DNA of 14,671 bases from a virus (Duplodnaviria; Heunggongvirae; Uroviricota; Caudoviricetes): the IMG/VR virus record IMGVR_UViG_2654588181_000003; one strand, 5' to 3'. Of the stretch, positions 1 to 14,533 are shown one piece after another (within the stretch, counting starts at the first letter, position 1; every line of letters begins with the position of its first letter). A model generated the notes under the pieces. It was not told where the DNA came from and made no database searches. It was given only the letters and a program-made list of their open reading frames with translations. Made by a program: the position numbers and the translations under genes.

Positions 1-324
1 TGGCGGCGTAAGAGGCCCCGGAACGTTATCGTTCACACGGACCGTGGAGGCCAGTACTGTTCAGCAGATTATCAGGCGCAACTGAAGCGGCATAATCTGC
101 GTGGAAGTATGAGCGCAAAAGGTTGCTGCTACGATAATGCCTGCGTGGAAAGCTTCTTTCATTCGCTGAAAGTGGAATGTATCCATGGAGAACACTTTAT
201 CAGCCGGGAAATAATGCGGGCAACGGTGTTTAATTATATCGAATGTGATTACAATCGGTGGCGGCGGCACAGTTGGTGTGGCGGCCTCAGTCCGGAACAA
301 TTTGAAAACAAGAACCTCGCTTAG
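1..324 (+). CDS. insF: IS3-family DDE transposase OrfB (InsF-like), C-terminal ~107 codons, 5'-truncated by the window edge
   Basis: Frame 1 is open from base 1: [25 protein letters not shown]...[24 protein letters not shown]...[16 protein letters not shown]. The HTDRGGQY and DNAxxESFFxxLK motifs are the second D and the E region of the IS3-family DDE triad; the ENKNLA C-terminus matches IS3 InsF as I remember it. Confidence 0.85.
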
Positions 325-354
325 GCCTGTGTCCATATTACGTGGGTAGGATCA
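1..354 (+). mobile_element. IS3 insertion sequence, 3' portion only (element continues left of the window); right terminal inverted repeat ends near 354
   Basis: Reverse complement of 315-354 reads TGATCCTACCCACGTAATATGGACACAGGCCTAAGCGAGG, which I recognise as the IS3 terminal inverted repeat. It lies directly after the transposase stop codon. The other end is not in the window, so target-site duplication cannot be assessed. Confidence 0.8.
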
Positions 355-1775
355 TTCTTGCCATTGGCGTAACTTCGTGAATTAGGATGGTAGCCCTATT
401 TTGCCTTAAAGTTCCGCTTGTTACGAGCTTATACAGCGATTAATTATTATCTGATTTTAGTGTTTTCGTTCAGCTCAGCAAGTGCAATGACTCATGGGGT
501 AAGTGCTTTGTAACAGGGTTGTTGATGTCAGTCGTTGGCCCTCAATGGAGTCACGGTCATAGGCATAATTGCTGTATAGCTGTTAATGTTTGTCTGGGTG
601 AATTTCTACTATTCGGACTAACACCAAGTGAGTTCCATACTACATAACTGTGAGAATTTTCTGTACCCTTCACTCTATCCTCTTCTTGCATATTTACAGG
701 AAGATAAAGCAAAAGATACAAAACTTTGTAATCAAAAAACTGTCTTAATGTACTTACATCACGTTTAGTTATTAAATTTTTTGTCATGGTGAAAATTTTT
801 ACTTGGTCATTAAAATTCATCGGGTGTTAATATTCTAAACGAATAGGATGTCAAGCTAAAATGATGTGTCAAGTTGTTTGTAAAGTGAGAGGTTTATTTT
901 TGGAAGAAATGCTTAAGAGAAGTATATATGATATTTGCCTGAATATAATTATTGATATGCAAGGTTGGCAGAGGTTTTCTTTCTTTTCTAACCGAAGGGA
1001 AGAAAAGCAAGGGGAACTCGAAGAAGCAAGCGCAGCGGCTTCGCAGAGTTAGCCCTTGCTTCTCTTATAATTGGCATTATTCATTCAAGAACAATAGGAT
1101 CTTCGCTTGTACAAGCGAAGCTATAATAAAAACAATCAATTAATTATTTTTAAAGTATTAAACAAGAACCTATTGACATTCATAAAATACAAGTTATTTA
1201 TAATGTATGCCATAAATAAAAAGTTTTATGTCATATGTATCCTGCACTATGTGCAGTTAATGTACCACTTGTCCCATAGATGGGAATATTGGAAAGGTTA
1301 CTTTGTTTTGAAGTAGCCTTTCGTCCTTCAATATTAACGATTACTTATTGCTATTACCAAGTCCAGTCGAATCGAAGAACATCTTTTATCTGAAACGACT
1401 CCTAATACCCGGTTAAAGCCACAATATCTCTCGCATACGTAGACCAAAGAAAAATTATGATATTAAATATGTGATTTTTTTTAGTGTTAAGTTGAATAAT
1501 TAAATACTGGAGAGTTTTCTGTGCACTACCAATTGCTGGTTCATCTGTTCTGCCGCTGATGTTTCTGACGAATCTCCCGGTGACACAGAACTGTCCCTCT
1601 CTACCAGCCTTTATTCGACTCAATGTCCGGCTGCTGATACGCAGTTATCCCTTCGTATCAATGACTTACACTTAAACGTAATGCTTTGGTTGCTGGCGTA
1701 TCTGACAGCATCTTCGGCGTGAAGGTCGTTGTGTAAGTATACTTCTTGGTTTATTTAGGCTATATAAAACCATGA

Positions 1776-2672
1776 CTATGACTTGCTGTTTTCAGTAAGA
1801 GTCTTATCATCCAAAGAATTTATTCTAGAAATTCTTTTTAACTCATTAAGATAATCAACCTCGTTTTCTAAGAACCAATGAAGAACTTTAGAATTGCCAA
1901 GTAATTTATTAATATATGACTGGATTATAACGAATTTCAACATATCTGAACCATACTCGGTTTGAAGCTTTTTCGTTTCTTCCGAAGTTGTTGCCATTTC
2001 TTGTTCCAGACGAAGTATGGTTTTTTTTATGTCCTTTTTATAGGGAGTGTTTTTCCCTTTATTTACTATCATCGATGCCGGTGTTGCATCCAAGATGCTC
2101 ATTGCAAATTTTTTACTATAATTATCAAAATTAATCATTGTACCGACTGCTTCAATTTGGCGAATTGGCTTCATTTTCCTCAAAACGTCAAATGTAGCCT
2201 TAGGTATAGGTTTATCAGAAAGTTTCGCAATTACACTTGAATCTATGCCGTTCATCACATTCGCTTTATCTTTTATGGCATCAACAGATATGCCCAAAGC
2301 AGCACTAAGTTTTTCAATTGATACTTTTGCCAGAGACTTAATTATCATTCTATGTTCTTCAACTACATTTATATGATTCACTTGTTTGTTAGGAGTGAAA
2401 GCATCATCTATGCTCGAAAGTATACATGGAGCTTTTTCTATACCTAAGTCTTTTAAAGCCTCAACCCTTAAATGGCCATCAAGTATCTTAGTGACATCTT
2501 TATCTTTGTCATAGAATACTATTATTGGTTCAATAATACCTAAGCTTTCGATAGAGGTAACTATTTGATGATATTTATGGCTTCGCTTTACGTTTTCTAA
2601 TAATTCCTTAGATGGAATTAACTTATTAGTTTCCAGGTAAATAAAATTATCGCCAAAACGTATCTGAATCAT
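1776..2672 (-). CDS. ParB-like (ParB/sulfiredoxin-fold) domain protein, 298 aa, distal gene of the three-gene operon
   Basis: ORF-track protein contains GIIEPIIVFYDKDKDVTKILDGHLRVEAL (ParB N-terminal box-like segment) and a helix-turn-helix-like stretch VSIEKLSAALGISVDAI. Start ATG overlaps the upstream stop (ATGA at 2669-2672). Visibly AT-rich coding sequence. Confidence 0.65.
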   Translation of the reverse strand: MIQIRFGDNFIYLETNKLIPSKELLENVKRSHKYHQIVTSIESLGIIEPIIVFYDKDKDVTKILDGHLRVEALKDLGIEKAPCILSSIDDAFTPNKQVNHINVVEEHRMIIKSLAKVSIEKLSAALGISVDAIKDKANVMNGIDSSVIAKLSDKPIPKATFDVLRKMKPIRQIEAVGTMINFDNYSKKFAMSILDATPASMIVNKGKNTPYKKDIKKTILRLEQEMATTSEETKKLQTEYGSDMLKFVIIQSYINKLLGNSKVLHWFLENEVDYLNELKRISRINSLDDKTLTENSKS

Positions 2673-3565
2673 TTTAATACCTCTTTGTTTACTGGGGTTA
2701 ATATCTGAGATGGTAGTTCTGAAAGATTCTCTTGTTCAAGTATATGTTGAAAGCTTTTATTCATCATTATGATGTTAAAAATCTCATTTACTATTAGTAG
2801 GTTGGTTTTTATGAATTTTGAGTTGTTATAAACAGATTTATGTTCAGCGATACTATTTTCATAAAGCTCAATCAACTCCTCTGCAGTCATCCTTTTTGAT
2901 GGTTTGTGATAATAAAATCCGGCTGCTTTTGCACCTTTATTCCCAACTGTTCTTTGATTTAGAATGTGTTTTATCTTTATAATGTCCCGACTTTTTATTA
3001 ATTTTTTATCATATGCTTCGGTAAGAATATCTTGTGCTTCCTCAGTTTCACATCTTGCAAATTGCACTGCGAGATACAGAGGCAAATTACCCCGTTCGAC
3101 TGCTGAGAGAAGTTTATGCTCTCCCTTATCAAGTAGCATATTAATACTGCTCACCCAGTTCGATGAATATCCAGTAATCTCACTTATTTCGGAGTCTGAA
3201 AGTCCTCTGATTTTCATGTCTTTAATCACCTGTAATAACTCATTAGAACGTGGTCTTCTCCTTGCAATGTTTTCAACTAAACTCATAACGTAAGCATCTT
3301 CTTCTGATACATCTCTTATAATTGCTGGAATAATAGTTTCACCTAATGCAACGAGAGCCTCTATTCTCCCTTGACCACAAATTAAAGCATATTTGAAATC
3401 GCCTTCATCAATAGCTCTTACGCTTATAGGCTTGCTTAATCCTCTTTTTTTTATGCTTTCCTTTATTTCTTCATGCACTACCTTATTTCTTGTTCGTGGG
3501 TTAAGAAATTTTATTTTTGCAATCTCAATTTGAATTATTGGGAATTCATTTTTTTCAGGCAGCAT
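2669..3565 (-). CDS. ParB/Spo0J-like N-terminal domain protein with helix-turn-helix, 298 aa, middle gene of the operon
   Basis: Motifs in the translation: IAKIKFLNPRTR, GLSKPISVRAIDEGDFKYALICGQGRIEAL, LVENIARRRP (ParB arginine-patch-like), and GLSDSEISEITGYSSNWVS (helix-turn-helix). SD-like GAGGG lies 6 nt upstream of the ATG at 3565. The start overlaps the recombinase 3' end by 11 nt. Confidence 0.7.
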   Translation of the reverse strand: MLPEKNEFPIIQIEIAKIKFLNPRTRNKVVHEEIKESIKKRGLSKPISVRAIDEGDFKYALICGQGRIEALVALGETIIPAIIRDVSEEDAYVMSLVENIARRRPRSNELLQVIKDMKIRGLSDSEISEITGYSSNWVSSINMLLDKGEHKLLSAVERGNLPLYLAVQFARCETEEAQDILTEAYDKKLIKSRDIIKIKHILNQRTVGNKGAKAAGFYYHKPSKRMTAEELIELYENSIAEHKSVYNNSKFIKTNLLIVNEIFNIIMMNKSFQHILEQENLSELPSQILTPVNKEVLK

Positions 3566-5111
3566 ATAGTTCCCTCACTTTCATGCGAGTAATAATTTGT
3601 AGAAGTTTATCAAGATTATCAAATCTATAGAGATCTAATCGAATGTTGTTTGTTTCCGTCATGCACATTTTATTATATTCGTTTTCAATCTTTGGTATGA
3701 TATAAAAATCAAGAGGTGAAATATTTTGTGAATTCATTCGTATAACAATTGTTATGTCTGCTTTCTGTGAGTTATCAAACCGGACTTTCCATCTAAGTTT
3801 ACCTGATTTCATATGTATGCATTTAGTAACAAGGACGGAAATTAAAAACTCATCATTGATGTAAAGCATTGGGGCATATTTATACTCGTCTATATGACAG
3901 TTACTTTTTAAAATTTCACCCTTAAAATCCTCAATTATCTCTGAGTAAAATGATCTTAGTGCTTCATTTATTTTGAGATAGCTGTAATCATGTTCTGGCT
4001 TATAACCAATCAAAGTATATGCTCTTAAAAGACCACCAAATCGGGTTCTATAAACAGAAGATGAAGGGCCTGTATCATCTTCATCAATGATAAAGCCTGA
4101 TAGTTTTCCATTAGATTCTAATTTTTGTTTTAGTTTTTCTAATAGATCTTCATTAGTCAAATGAATGGATCGGAGCTGAATTATTTCTTGAGCTTTATTG
4201 TATTTTTTCTTTGAAATAATAGGTTTATATGCCTTGTCACATCTAACCCATTCATGTTTGGGGTTTTTTACAAGCCTACTTTTTAATTTAGATGAGGTTT
4301 TGTTATATATGTTGTTTCCAATATATTTTTCATTTGTCAAAATTTGATGTATTTTTGCACGAGTCCATAATGTTCCATTTTCTGCAGGTATGTTCTGTTC
4401 ATTTAATCTCTCAGCAATAATGAATTCTGGGACGTTATTATCTATAAAGAGATCATATATTCTATTTACAATTTTTATTTCATTTTTTGGTCCCGGAATT
4501 AATATTACCCTATCTGTTTGAATACTCTTTCTTTTGCGGAAACTCAATATTTCTTTAGCTATGCCATTTTCGTCTACTAAAAGACGTCTCAGCCCATAAC
4601 CAGCCATACCGCCTTGATGATAACCAAGCTTTATTAAATTTACTTGCCCTATAAATACCTTTTCAGATAGATTCCTGCTGTGATATGCAGCACTAGATCT
4701 TTTTATATTCAGTATAACAGAGGACTCTAAAGGGAAATCTTTAGTGGGTATAGGTTCGGAACAATATATAAGATCTACACCATTTCTCTCAAATAGAAAG
4801 GAATAATATGCCGCTTCATCACTATTTTGAAAACGACCAAAACGGCTCACATCATAAAATAATACAGCCTGTATATCTATTTTCTTTTGTTCTACATCGC
4901 TAAGTAACTGCTGCAAAGAATGCCTGCCTACGATACTGACTCCGCTCTTACCTGCATCATCGTAGGTATAAGCGATTTCCATATTGTTCTTTTCAGCATA
5001 ATCTTTGATATATTCGGACTGATTATGTAAAGAATATTGCTGATGGTCGGTAGACATCCTCAAGTACTGCGCGACCCTAACTCTATGATTTTTTTCATTT
5101 TCGCTAGCCAT
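3555..5111 (-). CDS. Large serine recombinase (resolvase/invertase catalytic domain plus recombinase domain), 518 aa
   Basis: N-terminus RVAQYLRMSTDHQ carries the catalytic-serine motif (YxRxSTxxQ). DDAGKSGVS, LQQLL and DVSRFGR match the serine-recombinase catalytic core. The roughly 370-aa extension is typical of large serine recombinases (phiC31 Int / TnpX / Ccr class). GAGG lies 8 nt upstream of the ATG. Confidence 0.8.
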   Translation of the reverse strand: MASENEKNHRVRVAQYLRMSTDHQQYSLHNQSEYIKDYAEKNNMEIAYTYDDAGKSGVSIVGRHSLQQLLSDVEQKKIDIQAVLFYDVSRFGRFQNSDEAAYYSFLFERNGVDLIYCSEPIPTKDFPLESSVILNIKRSSAAYHSRNLSEKVFIGQVNLIKLGYHQGGMAGYGLRRLLVDENGIAKEILSFRKRKSIQTDRVILIPGPKNEIKIVNRIYDLFIDNNVPEFIIAERLNEQNIPAENGTLWTRAKIHQILTNEKYIGNNIYNKTSSKLKSRLVKNPKHEWVRCDKAYKPIISKKKYNKAQEIIQLRSIHLTNEDLLEKLKQKLESNGKLSGFIIDEDDTGPSSSVYRTRFGGLLRAYTLIGYKPEHDYSYLKINEALRSFYSEIIEDFKGEILKSNCHIDEYKYAPMLYINDEFLISVLVTKCIHMKSGKLRWKVRFDNSQKADITIVIRMNSQNISPLDFYIIPKIENEYNKMCMTETNNIRLDLYRFDNLDKLLQIITRMKVRELYAA

Positions 5112-5393
5112 GCACGAAACCTCATGGATGATTCAATACAATGTAGTGGATAAAATTGATCAAATTTTAACCGAATTCAACTGTTTTATCATTGATTAGA
5201 GCGAATTTGGTAGATCTTCGAGGTGTATGATAATCGAGAAGAGATGTGAATTATTTAGCTGATATGACCGACAGCTTTCGTTATGTGGACTCAATGTCCC
5301 CATTTGTAAATGGCTATGCTTAGTCCACATAGGTTAATGGTGTGATTATTAATTCTTTAACTAAATCAAGATAGTTAATCCATCATGGGAGAG

Positions 5394-6623
5394 TTATGCG
5401 GCAATAACTTTGCATTTTTGAGACGAAACATAGTCACTCCACCATTGCATGAGAACCACCCGTTCAGTGAGATACTCTGCACGATTGTAGGCTGCAATTA
5501 TTTCATCTTTCTTCGAGTGGGCAAGGGCGGCTTCTAAGACATCAGTCCTAAACTTGCCAGACTCCTCAGCAGCCGTTCTAGCAATGGATCGCATACCGTG
5601 AGCTACAAGCTCACCTCCGAAACCCATACGGATTATGGCCGCATTAGCTGTTTGTTCATGCATGTGATTGAGTGGAGCTTTGATACTGGGGAACACCCAC
5701 TCTCTATGCCCGCTGATGACTTTCATTAAATCCAAAACTCGCAAAGCTTCTTTGCTCAGTGGAACTTTGTGAGGCTTCTTCATTTTCATAAACTCCGCCG
5801 GGATGTTCCACATGCCAGTTTCAATATCAATATCTGACCATCTTGTGCGAACAGCTTCACCTGGGCGAACCCATGTGAGAAGTTGCCACTCAATCAGTAG
5901 CCTTGTTTCCAAACGGATAGAAGCATTGTTTAGAGCAACCAAGAAGCGAGGGAGTTCGGAAGGGGGTAATGCTGGCATATTCTGTTTTTTTGGCTTGCTG
6001 AACCGTTGCCCCAGGTTGTCTGCCGGGTTGAATTCTATGAGTTCTTCTGTTGCTGCATAGCGGAAAATTTCATTCAGGCGGGATATGATGCGGCGAAGTG
6101 TTTCAAGGACACCTCGTTTTTCTATGGGTTCTAAATGCTGTTTAAGCATTTTAGGGCGAATCTCCTTAATTGGGGTATCACCCAATGTGGAAAAGATATT
6201 TCTCTCTAGGCTTCGCCAGATGTCGTTAGCATGATCTTGGGAGATGCCTGACGTTTTGACTTTCTCATCAAGCCACTTCTTGGCTACTGCTTGAAATGTA
6301 TGTTCCGTGGCATCTTTCAGTGCATTGGCTTTTTGGTTGTTATGAACTTGGGGGTCTATACCATTTGTAAGCAACGACAAGTATTCATCACGTAAAGCTC
6401 GTGCCTTCGCAAGTGTAAGGTGAGGATAGGTTCCTAAGCTCACCTTAGTTCGCTTTTTGGTCACAGGCACTGCATATCTGAAATACCAATTTTTCTTCCC
6501 TCCCTTCGCCAGGGGAGCGATTCGCAACAGCAAACCATCGCCGTCAAAAAGGTTAACCTCTTTTTCGGCAGGTTTGGTGCTTTTGATTTCAGTGTCAGTG
6601 AGCTTCTTAGCGATTTTGGCCAT
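5394..6623 (-). CDS. P4-type tyrosine integrase (CP4-57 IntA-like), about 409 aa from the internal Met
   Basis: MAKIAKKLTDTEIKSTKPAEKEVNLFDGDGLLLRIAP...KNWYFRY is the characteristic P4-family integrase N-terminus. I take the start at 6623 (MAKIAKK, preceded by GAGGG 7 nt upstream) rather than the ORF-track start at 6704. It lies about 165 nt downstream of an ssrA 3'-end copy on the same strand. Confidence 0.85.
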   Translation of the reverse strand: MAKIAKKLTDTEIKSTKPAEKEVNLFDGDGLLLRIAPLAKGGKKNWYFRYAVPVTKKRTKVSLGTYPHLTLAKARALRDEYLSLLTNGIDPQVHNNQKANALKDATEHTFQAVAKKWLDEKVKTSGISQDHANDIWRSLERNIFSTLGDTPIKEIRPKMLKQHLEPIEKRGVLETLRRIISRLNEIFRYAATEELIEFNPADNLGQRFSKPKKQNMPALPPSELPRFLVALNNASIRLETRLLIEWQLLTWVRPGEAVRTRWSDIDIETGMWNIPAEFMKMKKPHKVPLSKEALRVLDLMKVISGHREWVFPSIKAPLNHMHEQTANAAIIRMGFGGELVAHGMRSIARTAAEESGKFRTDVLEAALAHSKKDEIIAAYNRAEYLTERVVLMQWWSDYVSSQKCKVIAA

Positions 6624-6721
6624 GTTTGGGACCCTCGATTTTAGGACCCATCTTCGTGGGTCCCATTCAGGGTGCCATAACTCGTAGTTCTCAGCAATTC
6701 TCACTAGACTACAATAGACGT

Positions 6722-6755
6722 AAAAAAGCCCGCAGAGCTTGTGCTGTGCGGGCTT
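6722..6755 (-). terminator. Rho-independent terminator on the minus strand, between the ssrA-end repeat and the integrase
   Basis: Minus-strand reading AAGCCCGCACAGCACAAGCTCTGCGGGCTTTTTT: a 7-bp GC-rich stem (GCCCGCA/TGCGGGC), a short loop and a U tract. Confidence 0.5.
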
Positions 6756-6789
6756 AGTAGACTTTACTGAACTTCAGTACATCAATATT

Positions 6790-6824
6790 TGGTGGAGCTG
6801 GCGGGAGTTGAACCCGTGTCCGAA
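6790..6824 (-). other. 35-nt copy of the tmRNA (ssrA) 3' end; att-site direct repeat, not a complete gene
   Basis: Minus strand reads TTCGGACACGGGTTCAACTCCCGCCAGCTCCACCA, matching the E. coli ssrA 3' terminus as I recall it with one mismatch. Similarity to ssrA stops immediately 5' of this segment (plus coordinates above 6824). Confidence 0.75.
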
Positions 6825-6899
6825 TATTTGCAATGCGTTGATTTATAACGAATAAAATTTAAAGTTGGTTCTTACGGCTCTTTTGCGGATATTTTACTA

Positions 6900-7718
6900 T
6901 CAATTCGTAGTCCTGCCATATTTACGTTTTTTCTTGCGGTTTGTTTCTGGTTTCTTCTCTCGGTTATTGTCTACTTTTTCATGTATATCCATATTGAACC
7001 AAGAAGCATGCGAAACCTCACTTAATGGAAATATGATACTGGTATCAACTCCATCAAGATCGTTGTAATCATTTGAAAACAGGACCCTTAGTGTGTCCTT
7101 GTCCCTGTAACCAGATATGATTGGGCTAATAGAAATTTCAAGGTTAGGGCCTTGTTTTTCGTTTGGCTCACTAATCATGTTAACTGTTCCGACATATACT
7201 TTGCGGCATTTCAGGCTTATCAGTACCGGTCTGTTTGTAGTCGCTGAATCAAAGAATAGCTGACCAAGTGAGCCATCAGACAACAGTTTTTCCAACTCAT
7301 TAAGCCTGATTAGTTGCTTTGCGAAATTGATAGAAATTGCATTATTGGATGCAGAACTAATAGTTTTTGCTGCCACAAACATACGAAATTTGCATATCTG
7401 CAACCAAATAAAAGCAACTCCACAAGTCGCCACTGATAGCAGGATGAGCCATGATGTTATCCTGTTTTCTTTAGGGTCTGCACTACCATCAATAAGATGT
7501 GATACCCATGTGACCAGTGTAAGGCTTGGTATAAAGTACTTGGTTGCATACGCCAGCACGACTGCAACAATGAACGAGTACACACCGTACGTGGCCACCT
7601 TCATATAGAGAAGCTGGCCGTCGTAACGGTGGAGTCGATAGAATAATTTGATGTTATGGGGCGATGTAACCAGTAAGGATCCACTTACTAAAAGTGGAAT
7701 GATCAGCAATGCAAACAT
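6900..7718 (-). CDS. Hypothetical integral membrane protein, 272 aa; three predicted N-terminal transmembrane helices, soluble C-terminal domain with a lysine/arginine-rich tail
   Basis: Hydrophobic segments FALLIIPLLVSGSLLV, YGVYSFIVAVVLAYATKYFI and ITSWLILLSVATCGVAFIWLQI; C-terminus NNREKKPETNRKKKRKYGRTTN. The ATG at 7718 is 3 nt after the upstream gene's stop codon (7722-7724). No recognisable family. Confidence 0.55.
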   Translation of the reverse strand: MFALLIIPLLVSGSLLVTSPHNIKLFYRLHRYDGQLLYMKVATYGVYSFIVAVVLAYATKYFIPSLTLVTWVSHLIDGSADPKENRITSWLILLSVATCGVAFIWLQICKFRMFVAAKTISSASNNAISINFAKQLIRLNELEKLLSDGSLGQLFFDSATTNRPVLISLKCRKVYVGTVNMISEPNEKQGPNLEISISPIISGYRDKDTLRVLFSNDYNDLDGVDTSIIFPLSEVSHASWFNMDIHEKVDNNREKKPETNRKKKRKYGRTTN

Positions 7719-7721
7719 TTG

Positions 7722-7970
7722 TTAGTCGTCATTGTCCATTGAGTTAGCTTTAGCGGCTGCAACAGCTTTTGCATCCTGCTCGACGAATTTTCTAGCTGCT
7801 TTCCTAAGCTGAGTGATTTTTTCTGGGTCAGTAGATGGGTCTACAATAACTGCACCACGCCCTACGACCTTGATGTTTTTAACACCAGATTTGTTCAAAC
7901 GATCGGCCATGGCTTGTCCGCCTTTGACCAAATCATTCAGCCCAAACATCTTCATGACTAGTTCTGACAT
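7722..7970 (-). CDS. Hypothetical small soluble protein, 82 aa, first gene of the two-gene operon
   Basis: A near-consensus SD (AGGAGG) lies 5 nt upstream of the ATG at 7970. The protein is hydrophilic and alanine/lysine-rich with an acidic C-terminus (SMDNDD). No recognisable motif. Confidence 0.55.
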   Translation of the reverse strand: MSELVMKMFGLNDLVKGGQAMADRLNKSGVKNIKVVGRGAVIVDPSTDPEKITQLRKAARKFVEQDAKAVAAAKANSMDNDD

Positions 7971-8265
7971 AAAGACCTCCTTTCAGTCCCCCCAATGTAT
8001 CCTTTTGAGGCATTTATTGCTCCCCGCAGAACGGGGCGCGGGATTTTACCATAATCTACGTACTGGCTCCAAGATTTCCCGCGTGTTCCTAGTACTAGGA
8101 CAGCTGCCTGAGTACCAAGTTCACCTATAACATATATACTTGGTTCGAATTTTTGCAAGGTAAAAAGTGCCTTATGTTTAAGTATGTATGATGTGGATAT
8201 GACGAACATAACCACATCACAAATAACTTTTTATCAGGTTTCAGTGGCTATTTGTTCGGGCAGCA

Positions 8266-8920
8266 TCAAGCCTGTTTTGTATCATTAGTATTTTTAGCGG
8301 TATGTCCGTCATATGCAGCAAGGTAACTGCCATAGTGACGAAATAGCATTTCTGGTCCCTTATGGCCCATCTGGCCTGCAAGCCAGAACAGGTTCGCACC
8401 ACGGCTGATATGGCTGGTGGCGAATGTATGCCTGGTCTGATATGGGTTACGGTACCGGATACCTGCTTTACGTAAGGTTGGTATCCACGCTTTTTTCCTT
8501 ATCGCATCGGCGCTGGCCCACGGTTTGTTTGTCTTTGGATCTTCAAAGACAGTAGCATCCTTCATGAATGTAAATGGCTTCTGATTTATCAGCGCCAACA
8601 TTGCCTCTTCTGTCAGTTCAACTTTACGAGTACCGGCTTTTGTCTTTGTTCCTTTGATAACACCGACAACACTTGCGCTCTGGACATGGGCAGTTTTTCC
8701 AACAAAGTCGATATCACGCCATCGAAGGGCACATAATTCAGAACTACGCAGGCCTGTATGTATAGCGAACCGGAACAGATTTTCCCATTGTTTGTTTCCG
8801 GCTGCTGCTAGTAATGCATCAACTTCTGCTGGTGATAGCGGATCAACCACGTAGCTGCTTTCTGCTTCTGACTTATCACTTTGGTAGCGCGAAGCAGTTA
8901 CCAACGATACGGGGTTAATT
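8266..8920 (-). pseudogene. Tyrosine integrase (phage/lambda-type) C-terminal catalytic-domain fragment; the N-terminal half is missing
   Basis: The translation ends with the catalytic region ...ELCALRWRDIDF...RKVELTEEAM...RHTFATSHISRGANLFWLAGQMGHKGPEMLFRHYGSY (R...HxxR...Y signature). The first ~40 residues of the ORF-track protein are just the antisense of the adjacent head gene, so only about 215 residues are integrase-derived. Confidence 0.7.
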
Positions 8921-8923
8921 TGA

Positions 8924-10255
8924 AGTACCCCAGCCTCCCGGACGCCAGTGCAGGCAGCAGCACCCGTGGTGGATGAAAACAGTATCCGTGCGCAGGTACT
9001 GGCAGAGCAAAAAGCGCGTGTAAACGGTATTAATGATCTGTTTGCCATGTTTGGCGGGCGTTATCAGACGCTGCAGGCTCAGTGTCTTGCCGATCCTGAA
9101 TGTTCGCTGGAGCAGGCCCGCGAAAAGCTGTTGAACGAGATGGGGCGCGAGTCCACGCCATCCAATAAAAATACCCCGGCTCATATTTATGCCGGTAACG
9201 GTAATTTTGTGGGGGACGGGATCCGCCAGGCGCTGATGGCGCGTGCCGGATTTGAAAAAACCGAACGTGATAATGTCTACAACGGGATGACCCTGCGTGA
9301 ATATGCCCGTATGTCACTGACTGAACGGGGTATTGGGGTTTCCAGTTATAACCCGATGCAGATGGTCGGTGCGGCGTTCACACACAGTACGTCTGACTTC
9401 GGTAATATTCTGCTGGATGTTGCGAACAAAGCCATTCTGCAGGGCTGGGAAGATGCCCCTGAAACCTATGAACAGTGGACGCGGAAAGGTCAGTTGTCTG
9501 ATTTTAAAATTGCCCATCGTGTGGGTATGGGGGGCTTCAGTGCTCTGCGTCAGGTGCGTGAAGGGGCGGAATATAAATACGTCACCACCGGAGATAAACA
9601 GGCCACTATTGCACTGGCGACCTATGGCGAGCTGTTCAGTATCACCCGTCAGGCCATTATCAATGATGATCTGAATATGCTGACCGATGTCCCGATGAAA
9701 CTGGGCCGTGCGGCGAAATCCACTATTGCCGATCTGGTTTATGCCATTCTGACGTCTAACCCGAAAATCTCCACAGATAATGTAAGTCTGTTCGATAAAG
9801 CAAAACATGCAAACGTACTGGAGAGCGCTGCAATGGACGTGGCATCGCTGGATAAAGCCCGCCAGTTGATGCGCGTTCAGAAAGAGGGGGAGCGTCATCT
9901 GAATATTCGTCCTGCGTTCGTACTGGTACCGACGGCGATGGAGTCTGTTGCTAACCAGGTCATTCGCTCCTCAAGTGTCAAGGGGGCTGACATTAACGCC
10001 GGTATTATTAACCCGGTGAAAGATTTTGCGACCGTTATTGCAGAGCCTCGTCTTGATGATAACAGCCAGACCACCTTCTACCTGGCTGCGTCAAAAGGCT
10101 CCGATACTATTGAAGTGGCTTATCTCAACGGTGTGGATACGCCATATATTGATCAGATGGAGGGCTTCAGTGTGGATGGCGTGACAACGAAAGTGCGTAT
10201 TGACGCCGGTGTCGCGCCAGTTGATCACCGCGGTCTGGTGAAATGTACGGCGTAA
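8924..10255 (+). pseudogene. Phage head morphogenesis protein fragment (major capsid or prohead protease/scaffold family), N-terminally truncated
   Basis: An in-frame stop at 8921-8923 precedes the open frame. The ORF track begins at a GTG (8948) with no RBS, and the frame runs directly into the antisense integrase fragment. Lambdoid head-gene order (large head protein, then a ~108-aa DUF2190-like decoration gene) supports the call. The exact family is assigned from memory only. Confidence 0.55.
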
Positions 10256-10341
10256 ACGTCGCAGACAACAACTCTGATGGCCCGTAAGGGCTTTTTTTGT
10301 ACCTGAAATCAGCCCCTGAACGGGGCTGTGCGGAGACAGTT

Positions 10342-10665
10342 ATGGCAAAGAATTTTGTAGAAGAAGGAAAAACGGTGGCGATTGTTGCCAGTGCAGCCAT
10401 CAGCAGCGGAGATCTGGTGCAGGTGGGTGATGTTTTTGCGGTGGCACTGACCGATATTCCACAGGGTGAAACAGGCGACGGCCTGACCGAAGGTGTGTTT
10501 ATGCTGCCTAAGCTGAAAACGGATGACATGAAAACGGGTAAGAAGGTTTATCTGAAGTCCGGAAAAGTTCAGCTGACTAACAGCGGCTCTGATCCGCTGG
10601 TCGGGGTTGTCTGGGCAGATGCCGGAACCAGTGCAGAAGAAGTGCCGGTAAAACTCAATGTCTGA
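10342..10665 (+). CDS. DUF2190-like phage head decoration/cement protein, 108 aa
   Basis: GGAGA lies 6 nt upstream of the ATG at 10342 (MAKNFVEEGK). The pattern GDLVQVGDVFAVALTDIPQGETGDGLTEGVFMLPK in a ~110-aa product following a head gene is typical of DUF2190 proteins. The ORF-track start at 10297 has no RBS. Confidence 0.55.
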   Translation: MAKNFVEEGKTVAIVASAAISSGDLVQVGDVFAVALTDIPQGETGDGLTEGVFMLPKLKTDDMKTGKKVYLKSGKVQLTNSGSDPLVGVVWADAGTSAEEVPVKLNV

Positions 10666-10733
10666 TCCCTTTTCCCGGCTGGCAGCGCGTATGGATGCGA
10701 TCACGGTCAGAAAGATGGGAAAGACAGCCTCGA

Positions 10734-11078
<345 letters not shown>

Positions 11079-11439
11079 TCATTGCAAGGGCTCACAACCA
11101 GTAGTGTTGAGAAAACCATCGGAGAAATGAGGCTAAGCCTTTGAATTTACATAGTACAAAAAAGATACTTTTCCTCATAATGTGAGCTAATTTTATGTTT
11201 CGTTTGATGATTGGACCGGTCTCGAAAACCGTAGACACATAGTATGCGTTAATTTATGAACAAACTACTTGTCTGCTGTTTTTCTGTCATTAGTCGTATA
11301 TAGAATGATTCTCTATGCCTAACAAAGCATCACCAGTGCTAGATTACGTTGTAGTCACTGTTTAAATATCCAGATAAAACATTTCCTTCTGGGTTGAATG
11401 AGTGATAAAGTTTCACCCATTAGACCCCTTGGAGGAATT

Positions 11440-12873
11440 ATGTCTGAATTTGAAGTGTTGGCACAGCATCTGCTGAAGGAAGCCGAGGCGGAAGAAAAGC
11501 TGCGACAGGAAAATGATAAAAAGCTTATCGAGAAAGTGCTGGAAATCTATGATCAGAAGTATGTGGCTGAATTACTGAGAAAAGTCGGAAAAAATGAGTG
11601 GAGCCGTGAAACCATTAACCGCTGGATTAATGGCAAGTGTTTACCAAAATCGTTGACTTCAGTAGAAGAGTCTCTTCTGCGTAAGATGCTACCAGAACCA
11701 CCTGCAAACCATCCGGAATATGCTTTCCGCTTCATTGACTTATTTGCTGGAATTGGAGGGATACGGAAAGGTTTTGAGGCCATTGGAGGCCAGTGTGTTT
11801 TTACCAGTGAATGGAATAAAGATGCTGTGCGTACATACAAGGCCAACTGGTTTAACGATGAACAGGTGCATAAATTCAATCTCGATATTCGGGAAGTCAC
11901 GCTGAGTGATAAAACCGATGTATTGGAAACGGATGCTTATGCATATATTGATGAGCATGTGCCGGATCATGATGTGCTTCTTGCGGGGTTCCCGTGCCAG
12001 CCATTTAGCCTTGCTGGTGTTAGTAAGAAAAACTCACTTGGTCGTGCGCATGGTTTTGAATGTGAAGCACAAGGAACACTTTTTTTTGACGTGGCACGTA
12101 TTATACGAGCAAAAAAACCGGCAATTTTTGTGCTGGAAAATGTCAAAAATCTGAAGAGCCATGATAAGGGTAAAACTTTCAAAGTCATTATGGAGACCCT
12201 TGACGAGCTGGGCTACGAAGTTGCCGATGCTGCAGAAATGGGAAAAAACGATCCAAAGATTATCGATGGGAAGCATTTTTTGCCTCAGCATCGTGAACGT
12301 ATTGTTCTGGTCGGATTTAGACGAGATCTGAATATTCACAAGGGGTTTACCTTGCGTGATATCAGTCGTTTTTATCCGGAACACCGCCCATCATTTGGTG
12401 AATTGCTGGAGCCTGTAGTCGACAGTAAATATATACTTACGCCAAAACTATGGGAGTACCTTTATAACTACGCCAAAAAGCATGCAGCCAAGGGGAATGG
12501 TTTTGGCTTTGGGTTGGTCAATCCTGAGAATAAGGAAAGCATTGCACGCACACTTTCTGCCAGATATCACAAAGACGGATCAGAAATTCTTATTGATCGT
12601 GGTTGGGATATGGCAACGGGAGAGGCTGACTTTATGAATGAGAGTAATCAGGCTCGTCGACCACGCAGGCTGACTCCCCGAGAGTGCGCACGCCTTATGG
12701 GATTTGAAAAACCTGGAGGGAAACCATTCCGTATTCCGGTTTCAGATACTCAGTCATATCGGCAGTTCGGTAACTCAGTTGTGGTGCCAGTATTTGAAGC
12801 TGTTGCCAGACTTCTGGAACCCTATATCCTCAAAGCTGTTTCTGCTGATGCTGGTAAGACTGGGCAGCCTTGA
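11440..12873 (+). CDS. ecoRIIM: DNA cytosine-5 methyltransferase, Dcm / M.EcoRII family (predicted CCWGG specificity), 477 aa
   Basis: GGAGG lies 3 nt upstream of the ATG at 11440 (MSEFEVLAQ...). The protein carries [17 protein letters not shown] (motif I, AdoMet binding), [11 protein letters not shown] (motif IV, catalytic Cys), FVLENVKNL (motif VI) and [10 protein letters not shown] (motif X). It is closely similar along its length to E. coli Dcm/M.EcoRII as recalled. Confidence 0.9.
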
Positions 12874-12907: not shown

Positions 12908-14116
12908 CTATGATAGTTCAGCGTAAAGCTCTATCAGCTCAGTAATGAATGCTCCGAGCGTTATTAATTCTTCTCTAACTGCTTCTGGGTATTTTTTATG
13001 TAAAGTTGATGGTACAACGAGTCTGACACCCGCATCTTTCATTTCTCGGTATTGTGCTGAAGAAACACCTTCTTGCAGTGTAAATAAATGTACCTGATGG
13101 ATTTTATCTGCTTCATTCAGTATCTGACGCCAGCGATCTTTGCAGGTGGTCTTTACTGCCAGCATACGTAAGTTTTCTACAGGAAATTCAACGTTATGAT
13201 ATGCCTCTGCTGAAGGAAACAGGAAATCTGGTTTTTTATTACCTTCAGTAACTGCCTGAGTGGAGAAATGCCGTAGTCCGTGCTCGATAAAAAGCTTCTC
13301 TAGGTGAAGTTCAAGTGATTTGCCTGCCCTTGATTTACGTCGATTACTGACAGAGTTGGCTAATGCAATAAACTCATCTACAGAATCGAATCCTTTCTTA
13401 ATAATATCAATAACATGTAATTCCTCGACGAGTAGAAAAATATCATACTCGACACGCCGACGGTCAATCAGTTGCTCATCTGGATCCTTGGAGTTTTTAG
13501 CATAATGGCCAGCAGCATATTGAATAATTTCGTTTCCAGAAGGAAAACGCTTCTTCCAGTCTTCAGGAATAACATATTTATGATTTACTGGAGTTTGCTG
13601 AAGAGACAATCCGCCCAAAATTTGTCCGGCAGGGCCGGAAATTAGGGTTCCAGGTATGATTTCGCCAATAGCAGACTCGATGATATCCTCTTCATCGGGA
13701 TTGACGCAGACCCATATATCTACCTCGGAACAGTCAGTGTTCTGTTCGTTTAACCTGAAAGCAAGAATTGTGAGGGCTCCTGTATTTTCAGGGTTCTGTA
13801 ATGGACTTCCTCTCCCCCAGCGCGTAATTCTTTTTTCGTTTCGGGTCTTACCAAAATAACGGTTGTTGTAATAAATTGCGCGTGCTTGGGTATCAGGGCA
13901 ATCATGGGATGATACATGCGCAGTAAGGAAGACTGAAGGGTTCAGTTCGCGAGTATGATTGATAGATGGAAAAAGCTTTTCAACGATATTTGAGGGGATA
14001 TAAAGTCCGACCTGATGGCCACCTGTTGCGCCTGTGTCGTTTGCAGAAAGGCGTTTGATGTAGATAAAGTAATTCCCGCTTGCGATATCAAGCAGCCAGT
14101 TATGAAAAACCGACAT
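12908..14116 (-). CDS. ecoRIIR: EcoRII-like type IIE restriction endonuclease (CCWGG), 402 aa
   Basis: The translation from the second Met (MSVFHNWLLDIASGNYFIYIKRLSANDTGATGGHQVGLYIPS...) matches EcoRII as I remember it nearly end to end, including the N-terminal effector-binding domain and the C-terminal catalytic domain. AGGGA lies 5 nt upstream of the ATG at 14116. Convergent with the methyltransferase, as in the EcoRII system. Confidence 0.9.
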   Translation of the reverse strand: MSVFHNWLLDIASGNYFIYIKRLSANDTGATGGHQVGLYIPSNIVEKLFPSINHTRELNPSVFLTAHVSSHDCPDTQARAIYYNNRYFGKTRNEKRITRWGRGSPLQNPENTGALTILAFRLNEQNTDCSEVDIWVCVNPDEEDIIESAIGEIIPGTLISGPAGQILGGLSLQQTPVNHKYVIPEDWKKRFPSGNEIIQYAAGHYAKNSKDPDEQLIDRRRVEYDIFLLVEELHVIDIIKKGFDSVDEFIALANSVSNRRKSRAGKSLELHLEKLFIEHGLRHFSTQAVTEGNKKPDFLFPSAEAYHNVEFPVENLRMLAVKTTCKDRWRQILNEADKIHQVHLFTLQEGVSSAQYREMKDAGVRLVVPSTLHKKYPEAVREELITLGAFITELIELYAELS

Positions 14117-14193
14117 ATACATCCCTTTGTTAACATACAGTCAGGGTTAACATTTTTCCATAGTTATAGATAAGCGGCTAGGAACTTAAGGGA

Positions 14194-14227: not shown

Positions 14228-14533
14228 CACTCGAGAGCCGCGGCTCCTTTGCGTATCCTTTTTTGTCTCCTCACCGTCTGGTCGGTGTCCTGCTGAGACT
14301 GCTAACTTCCTGTTTTTGTTGGTGTTGTCCTTACACCGTCCAATCATGATTGGTGGGCTGGCGGAGTTTGAATAAATATTATATTGCTTTGATTTTTAAC
14401 GATTTTGTTTAATTCAGTTTTTGTGCGTATACCTAATCGTATACCAATGGCTGTAAGTTAATGTGAAATGAAAGCGCATTTTTACTTGGATTGATGCTAT
14501 ATCGTACAGGAAAAAAATTTTTTTTCGAAAGAA

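Follow-up and report, generated by a model that had tools for sequence, protein, structure and literature searches.

Several described systems join a small cytosolic protein to a protein anchored in the inner membrane. In SpoIISA–SpoIISB, the SpoIISA toxin has three segments that span the membrane, together with a cytoplasmic domain to which its very small soluble partner, SpoIISB, binds (PMC3057836). Lambda RexAB and Kiwa KwaAB, carried as cargo of prophages or defence islands, likewise combine a cytosolic partner with a polytopic inner-membrane protein, and membrane proteins are generally seen as suicide effectors in such defence systems (PMC9122126). Here, a two-gene locus of comparable layout was analysed in a stretch of 14,671 nucleotides (nt) from a tailed-phage record (IMGVR_UViG_2654588181_000003, Caudoviricetes), the whole of which is referred to as the window. 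The window is part of an E. coli chromosome. The locus encodes a soluble protein of 82 amino acids (aa) and a 272-aa protein with three predicted transmembrane (TM) helices, and is presented as a candidate membrane-effector defence or toxin–antitoxin (TA) module from uncharacterised protein families. Our favoured reading, which we regard as evenly balanced between right and wrong, is a phage-borne exclusion or abortive-infection (Abi) module consisting of a membrane effector and a small partner. The pair is laid out as follows.

7722-7970, minus strand: small gene, 82 aa, soluble product (open reading frame call)
6900-7718, minus strand: membrane gene, 272 aa (open reading frame call, hydropathy, AlphaFold)
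7976-7981, minus strand: Shine-Dalgarno (SD) sequence AGGAGG, 5 nt ahead of the small-gene ATG at 7970
7716-7724, minus strand: junction of the genes, TAA (7724-7722), CAA, ATG (7718-7716), the genes being 3 nt apart and in one frame

The two genes had been described as tightly coupled in the first-pass annotation, and both open reading frames (ORFs), the AGGAGG and the 3-nt gap were read as described there. The segment from SD to ATG was invariant in an alignment of seven related loci. No separate strong SD precedes the second gene, and translational coupling therefore fits; the sequence suggests that translation of the small gene is coupled to that of the membrane gene. Co-transcribed and closely spaced, both genes form one operon.

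Like SpoIISA–SpoIISB of Bacillus subtilis, the locus is a bicistronic operon, with products of 248 aa and 56 aa there and of 272 aa and 82 aa here. Unlike that system, it encodes an Sm/LSm-like rather than a GAF-like cytoplasmic fold, lacks a match to Pfam SpoIISA_toxin, has the reverse gene order (small gene first), and is found in Proteobacteria and their phages rather than in Bacillus; toxicity is a putative property of the pair here. In contrast to RexAB and KwaAB, the pair has no PADLOC match, and its membrane protein has a large conserved cytoplasmic domain of its own; no sequence homology to RexA, RexB or SieB was found in PADLOC and Pfam. RexA has 279 aa, compared with 82 aa for the partner here.

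Pairing and distribution of the two genes

For the membrane protein, 104 word-indexed homologs were retrieved from Enterobacterales, Vibrio, Shewanella, Moritella, Photobacterium and Lautropia, every one labelled hypothetical and without Pfam domains. At E<=1e-3, a profile of the family matched 2,843 cluster representatives (clusters at 50% identity), and the top matches were nearly all full-length (240-340 aa). Close homologs of the small protein numbered 25. Pairing was scored in 156 family loci taken from a one-genome-per-species collection and from IMG/VR viral contigs. An adjacent same-strand upstream ORF of 50-125 aa was present in 147/156 family loci (94%), compared with 172/680 control genes (25%), a frequency far above chance; in most family loci its stop lay within a few nt of the membrane-gene start, and overlap was frequent. 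An iterated small-protein profile recognised 111 of the upstream ORFs as homologs. The remaining ones accompany the most divergent membrane subfamily, have a common hairpin-then-helix core and gave a weak profile–profile match that was in register (hhalign E 4e-4, probability 34%). In the reverse direction, the membrane gene followed in all 21 small-gene loci having downstream sequence (21/21). The mirror-tree distances of the two proteins correlated at r=0.886, a value reached by 0/500 permutations. Co-occurrence had been set beforehand as a check on the proposal, and on these counts it held both ways: across Proteobacteria the two genes are conserved together and diverge together.

Neither protein matched Pfam, NCBIfam or PADLOC. 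Only PHROGs of unknown function were hit (phrog_3630 by the membrane protein, phrog_35771 at 1e-45 by the small protein), in line with the first-pass annotation, in which no motif had been recognised in either product. The homologs of phage SEN5 and of the Klebsiella phage described below likewise gave no match in PADLOC, and searches with the family profiles found no sequence relatives in PDB. Known defence, exclusion, TA and channel families gave no sequence match in Pfam, NCBIfam, PADLOC and PDB, and in the same databases homology to a housekeeping transporter or sensor, which had been named in advance as evidence against a defence role, was absent. The likeness to Abi, exclusion and TA modules that had been proposed from the architecture is supported in part, by the operon layout and by co-conservation; no known Abi, superinfection-exclusion (Sie) or TA family is matched.

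In the one-genome-per-species collection (~100,000 species) only 114 matches were found, and 220 were found on viral contigs. Among 5,426 complete E. coli genomes, 17 carried the variant of the window and 32 carried a variant linked to P2 and IetAS. The distribution of the pair is thus patchy.

Predicted topology and folds of the two proteins

The larger product is predicted to be an inner-membrane protein. Hydropathy placed its hydrophobic segments at residues 1-19, ~38-62 and ~88-110, and the K/R charge was +3 in the loop 20-37, net -1 in the loop 63-87 and +3 past TM3; from these counts an N-out/C-in topology is predicted. A soluble domain of ~160 aa and a K/R-rich tail (255-272) follow TM3. 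The AlphaFold2 model (pLDDT 79.8) agrees with the three-helix layout and has helices to residue 161, followed by six strands at 165-240. The three N-terminal helices, cytoplasmic domain and basic tail that had been proposed on first reading were in this way recovered by hydropathy, K/R counts and the model alike. Two conserved or structured elements were delimited.

Residues 28-38 of the membrane protein: conserved cytoplasmic loop motif RLHRYDGQLLY
Residues ~150-245 of the membrane protein: predicted cytoplasmic Sm/LSm/WYL-like beta-barrel domain

In the family alignment, residues L29, R31, G34 and Y38 were invariant in the loop after TM1, and K173, Y175, G177, P185, S202, G203 and R205 were invariant in the C-terminal domain, where the barrel bears the family-specific motifs KxYxG, EPNE (EP invariant) and SGYR. 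The variable parts of the family were the periplasmic loop and the linker. Given the predicted N-out/C-in topology, the conserved motifs would face the cytoplasm. The modelled cytoplasmic domain has the N-terminal helix and five strongly bent strands by which an Sm fold is recognised, and Foldseek comparison of the model with PDB and BFVD returned Sm-domain matches only, all of them weak; a full-length structural match was found neither in PDB nor among the BFVD viral models. Pfam searches gave no match to LSM, Hfq or WYL profiles or to the Sm1/Sm2 sequence motifs. As judged from the model, the relationship to Sm proteins is at fold level only.

MscS offers a close parallel in layout, with three TM helices in an N-out/C-in arrangement followed by a cytoplasmic Sm-like beta domain, an architecture that in MscS assembles as a heptameric ring. 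By the Pfam search, the membrane protein falls outside the MscS family, which is defined by MS_channel homology and a heptameric channel. From the barrels of Sm, LSm and Hfq and from the WYL proteins DriD, BrxR, CapW and PafBC it differs in being membrane-anchored and in lacking an HTH, and the similarity to these is again one of fold.

With this topology, the protein might also act in non-lethal superinfection exclusion, blocking entry of the phage genome in the manner of Sie/Imm proteins, with the small protein as an assembly or regulatory cofactor. A predicted inner-membrane protein of temperate phages that occupies exclusion-gene slots such as P2 old/tin is what this alternative would lead one to expect. 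However, the periplasmic parts (the N-terminus and the loop 63-87) are short and variable and the conserved motifs are all cytoplasmic, known Sie/Imm proteins are single small membrane proteins, and Pfam SieB gave no match. We consider this alternative very unlikely.

For the small protein, a helix, a beta-hairpin and a second helix were predicted in this order (AlphaFold2 pLDDT 64), and the model was ruled too uncertain to be used for a fold search. The hairpin turn is formed by VVGRG, which was invariant in the family alignment. No RHH, AbrB or HTH domain was detected in Pfam and PDB profile searches. An AbrB/MazE-like antitoxin, an idea prompted by the string 'VGRGxvxIP', is disfavoured by the helix-hairpin-helix order and by zero profile matches.

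These features bear on whether the pair is a classical TA or addiction module, in which a lytic or depolarising membrane toxin and a labile small antitoxin would stabilise the prophage or island. This alternative overlaps the favoured reading, because many TA modules also abort infection. The architecture of SpoIISA, with its 3 TM segments and cytoplasmic domain, and of its small partner SpoIISB matches that of the pair (PMC3057836); the small gene precedes its partner in close coupling, in the style of type II TA operons; co-occurrence is strict in both directions; the pair persists in a heavily deleted prophage remnant, as expected of an addictive module; and a Hok/Gef gene adjoins it in ZYB62. 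Against this, homology to TA families was zero in Pfam, NCBIfam and PADLOC, no DNA-binding antitoxin fold could be recognised in the small protein, and the conserved putative ligand-binding loops of the cytoplasmic domain point to sensing, which they suggest in preference to simple neutralisation. On balance, we judge a classical TA module to be distinctly unlikely.

Genomic neighbourhoods and candidate function

In the intact TA8571 prophage and in Cronobacter phage phiES15, the order was att(ssrA), membrane gene, small gene, int, xis, and lambdoid phages thus carry the pair as an insertion flanked by attP and the integrase. P2-like elements, namely those of Salmonella phage SEN5, of Klebsiella phage ST15-OXA48phi14.1 and in E. 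coli ABWA45, have a homologous pair between replication gene A and the portal gene. This gpA-gpQ region is a hotspot of anti-phage systems, in which old and tin are located in P2 (Rousset et al. 2022, PMC9122126); Table S5 of that study gives the E. coli pair WP_000457800 + WP_021570510 as 'hypothetical', beside Peptidase_S8 and AAA genes (IetAS). The homologous pairs of the Salmonella, Klebsiella and E. coli P2-like phages stand in exactly the slot of old/tin, whereas the copy of the window is in a different phage type, at att-int.

Defence genes adjoined the pair repeatedly. IetS/IetA were its neighbours in E. coli and in eight loci of viral or genomic origin. Klebsiella phage ST15-OXA48phi14.1 has bSEFIR beside it, Pseudomonas koreensis has Avs2, and a metagenome-assembled genome of Nitrosomonas has a type I restriction enzyme; a short pAgo adjoins it on a contig that bears the label Nostoc, and a viral contig has the candidate PDC-S49. 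In PADLOC, IetS was matched at 1e-273, IetA at 6e-132 and bSEFIR at 7e-103. The 138 nearest-neighbour representatives include CBASS cyclase, AbiLi and type II restriction-modification genes. In this operational assessment, both a recurrent slot and defence neighbours in unrelated genomes, the marks of cargo in defence islands or hotspots, were present. The earlier view of the pair as defence cargo stood in so far as it concerned the cargo-like location, and gained the P2 old/tin hotspot, the defence neighbours and the EcoRII/Dcm genes at the far end of the remnant; it was weakened by the many metabolic genes among the chromosomal neighbours.

Two simpler descriptions of the neighbourhood were rejected. 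An integrase is not always adjacent: one was found within 1.5 kb in ~26/156 loci, which may be an under-count. Nor is the pair an accessory of IetAS, though the two travel together in E. coli, because it occurs alone in the window, TA8571, phiES15 and SEN5. The pair is best explained as an autonomous accessory ('moron') module of temperate phages.

Together with IetS/IetA, a 47%-identical version of the pair makes up a convergent four-gene block in E. coli, located at 6658-11497 in E. coli ZYB62 (L163) and at 6771-11211 in E. coli ABWA45 (L164). The block occurs in two phage backbones, at the P2 gpA-gpQ hotspot and in a lambdoid nin-like region adjoining hok/gef, which suggests that it is a mobile mini defence island. 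In Klebsiella phage ST15-OXA48phi14.1 (L161), a 69-aa ORF (5853-6062) lies between the pair and the bSEFIR gene.

The same neighbourhoods must be weighed for another alternative, in which the pair is a factor for lysogenic conversion or host fitness that has no part in phage immunity, or regulates the life cycle of its own prophage from the membrane. At the membrane, RNA or a small ligand would then be bound by the Sm/WYL-like domain, for example to adjust the envelope, the tolerance of stress or the moment of induction or lysis. Non-defence genes such as lambda bor and lom also occupy phage accessory slots, the nearest neighbours of the pair are mostly non-defence genes, and the Pseudomonas chromosomal copies lie at a recurrent site amid metabolic and regulatory genes. 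Sm, Hfq and WYL folds bind nucleic acids or ligands in regulation, and in the lambdoid arrangement the pair is downstream of int in the same orientation, where early leftward transcripts could read in. However, at least three phage types that are unrelated to one another carry the pair, at positions that differ (att-int, gpA-gpQ and the nin-like region), which disfavours a role tied to the life cycle of a single phage, and its patchy distribution and repeated adjacency to bona fide defence systems in distant taxa also speak against such a factor. We regard this explanation as unlikely.

Under the favoured reading of an exclusion or Abi module, the pair would protect the lysogen from other phages, with the membrane protein as effector. 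It would be expressed in the lysogen from the module's own conserved, putative extended -10 promoter. By analogy with Sm/Hfq proteins and MscS, the membrane protein may assemble as a ring, in which 18-21 TM helices would form or perturb a membrane pore; a hexameric or heptameric ring is proposed because Sm-like domains typically form such rings. The Sm/WYL-like domain, the small protein or both would serve as sensor or gatekeeper, and the small partner might either keep the effector inactive, in an antitoxin-like manner, or pass on a signal of phage origin, such as a nucleic acid or phage protein. Infection would then lead to depolarisation of the membrane or to a block on DNA entry.

Several points weigh against an exclusion or Abi module. 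Its function is assigned by association only, and ring assembly, pore formation and interaction of the two proteins are at the level of proposals. WYL domains are usually dimeric regulators rather than rings, and genes for virulence and fitness are found in phage accessory slots as well. The small-protein model is of low confidence. Many of the chromosomal neighbours are ordinary metabolic or regulatory genes (AstB, permeases, TetR), and the pair occupies recurrent synteny breakpoints of the chromosome in the Pseudomonas fluorescens and syringae groups. In PADLOC-DB v2.0.0, 0 families were matched at E<=1 by both window proteins, and Pfam SieB, SpoIISA and MscS gave no match to either; no study of the pair was found in the literature, and the DefensePredictor supplements do not contain these accessions.

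A bolder form of the proposal, which we hold to be somewhat doubtful, is that the pair founds a new and widespread anti-phage system, in which a membrane-anchored Sm-like ring would form an MscS-like pore triggered by phage, each subunit contributing three TM helices, the barrel or the partner of 60-110 aa would sense phage nucleic acid or protein, and depolarisation or a block of entry would follow.

Putative expression signals, the prophage remnant and significance

Beyond the pair itself, the following features of the locus were noted.

8043-8051, minus strand: extended -10 promoter-like element TGGTAAAAT (conserved columns, seven loci)
8129-8158, minus strand: second promoter-like block, TTGCAA, 18-nt spacer, TATGTT (invariant TTGC..A and TAT..TA columns)
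8022-8036, minus strand: leader stem-loop CCCCG/CGGGG (alignments)
7990-8010, minus strand: leader stem-loop CCTCAA/TTGGGG (alignments)
6726-6740, minus strand: terminator-like hairpin and T-run, just beyond the att core (terminator scan)
6790-6828, minus strand: repeat of the 3' end of ssrA (transfer-messenger RNA, tmRNA), the att core bounding the prophage remnant (pattern match)
8266-8932, minus strand: truncated lambdoid integrase, catalytic domain only (Pfam Phage_integrase matches only; colinearity)

The upstream spacer was aligned across the seven related loci, with ~56% mean column identity, and the pattern TT.TG.TA.AAT (8043-8054) was invariant in all of them. A strict sigma-70 consensus scan called no promoter in the spacer upstream of the small gene, and conservation is therefore the sole basis on which a promoter function is proposed. 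The helix at 7990-8010 was paired in 92.6% of cells, with compensatory changes in two pairs, seen in the loci L089 and L095; since 39/500 shuffles reached the same value, support for this hairpin is modest. RNAalifold returned almost no consensus structure for a broad set of 5' leaders, and one hairpin was supported in a closer set only. The region 7990-8158 may constitute a regulatory leader. At the other end, the hairpin at 6726-6740 is likely to form the 3' end of the pair's transcripts in this arrangement. The spacer between int and the small gene also contains a perfect palindrome, TCCTAGTACTAGGA, at 8087-8100 and a 19-nt inverted repeat (84% complementary) at 8183-8225; the stretches around both vary among the aligned related loci, and these repeats could be strain-specific operators or sites for recombination proteins. 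The GC content of the pair is 38-44%, compared with 50-53% in the phage late genes.

The ssrA att repeat reported on first reading was recovered: 6790-6816 is identical to the 3' end of ssrA (chance expectation 0). The segment 6700-6828 of the window aligns with the annotated ssrA of other E. coli, and phage phiES15 has an annotated attP at the corresponding position. The Rfam tmRNA match at the repeat was weak, and ARAGORN found no complete tmRNA in the window. On the minus strand, 6722-6866 gave a sub-threshold Rfam match to IsrM, a Salmonella island small RNA (55 bits, compared with a gathering score of 376); this match overlaps the ssrA repeat and the terminator and probably reflects common ssrA-junction sequence.

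The integrase is decayed, as had been claimed: colinearity with the intact TA8571 prophage spans 3196-8932 only, and the catalytic domain alone is left of a gene that in TA8571 has 1176 nt and encodes 391 aa. At the deletion junction (8932), the truncated integrase is fused to late genes and the early region of TA8571 is absent; the N-terminus of the resulting 260-aa 'integrase' ORF is foreign. The late genes beyond the junction encode a Phage_capsid_4 protein (8948-10255) and a cement protein (10297-10665). More cargo is present at the far end of the same remnant: 10734-11033 is a GIY-YIG gene, truncated and LEM-3-like, 11398-12873 encodes a Dcm-type C5 methylase and 12908-14122 an EcoRII-type endonuclease. 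This cargo stops at a degenerate second ssrA 3'-end repeat, ttggtgggctggcggagtttgaa, at ~14351-14372. In strain MB06171, these EcoRII/Dcm-end genes directly adjoin intact ssrA and smpB. To the left (1-6790) lies a second tandem ssrA-linked island. In it, a P4-type tyrosine integrase occupies 5394-6704 and a large serine recombinase 3555-5111; two ParB_N/RepB-like genes follow one another at 1776-2672 and 2669-3565, and their end is overlapped by the start of the recombinase. An insertion-sequence fragment is found at 61-336.

The module should be easily tested, because it comprises ~1.4 kb and has an apparent promoter of its own. If the defence role is true, a large family that current defence-finding tools miss would be added to those known, spread over ~2,800 clusters (50% identity) in Gamma-, Beta- and Alphaproteobacteria and in P2-like and lambdoid phages, and one 'hypothetical' gene set of the P2 hotspot would be explained. 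It would also represent a new effector design, in which an Sm-like barrel is tethered to the membrane and an RNA- or ligand-binding fold is thereby linked with immunity at the level of the membrane.

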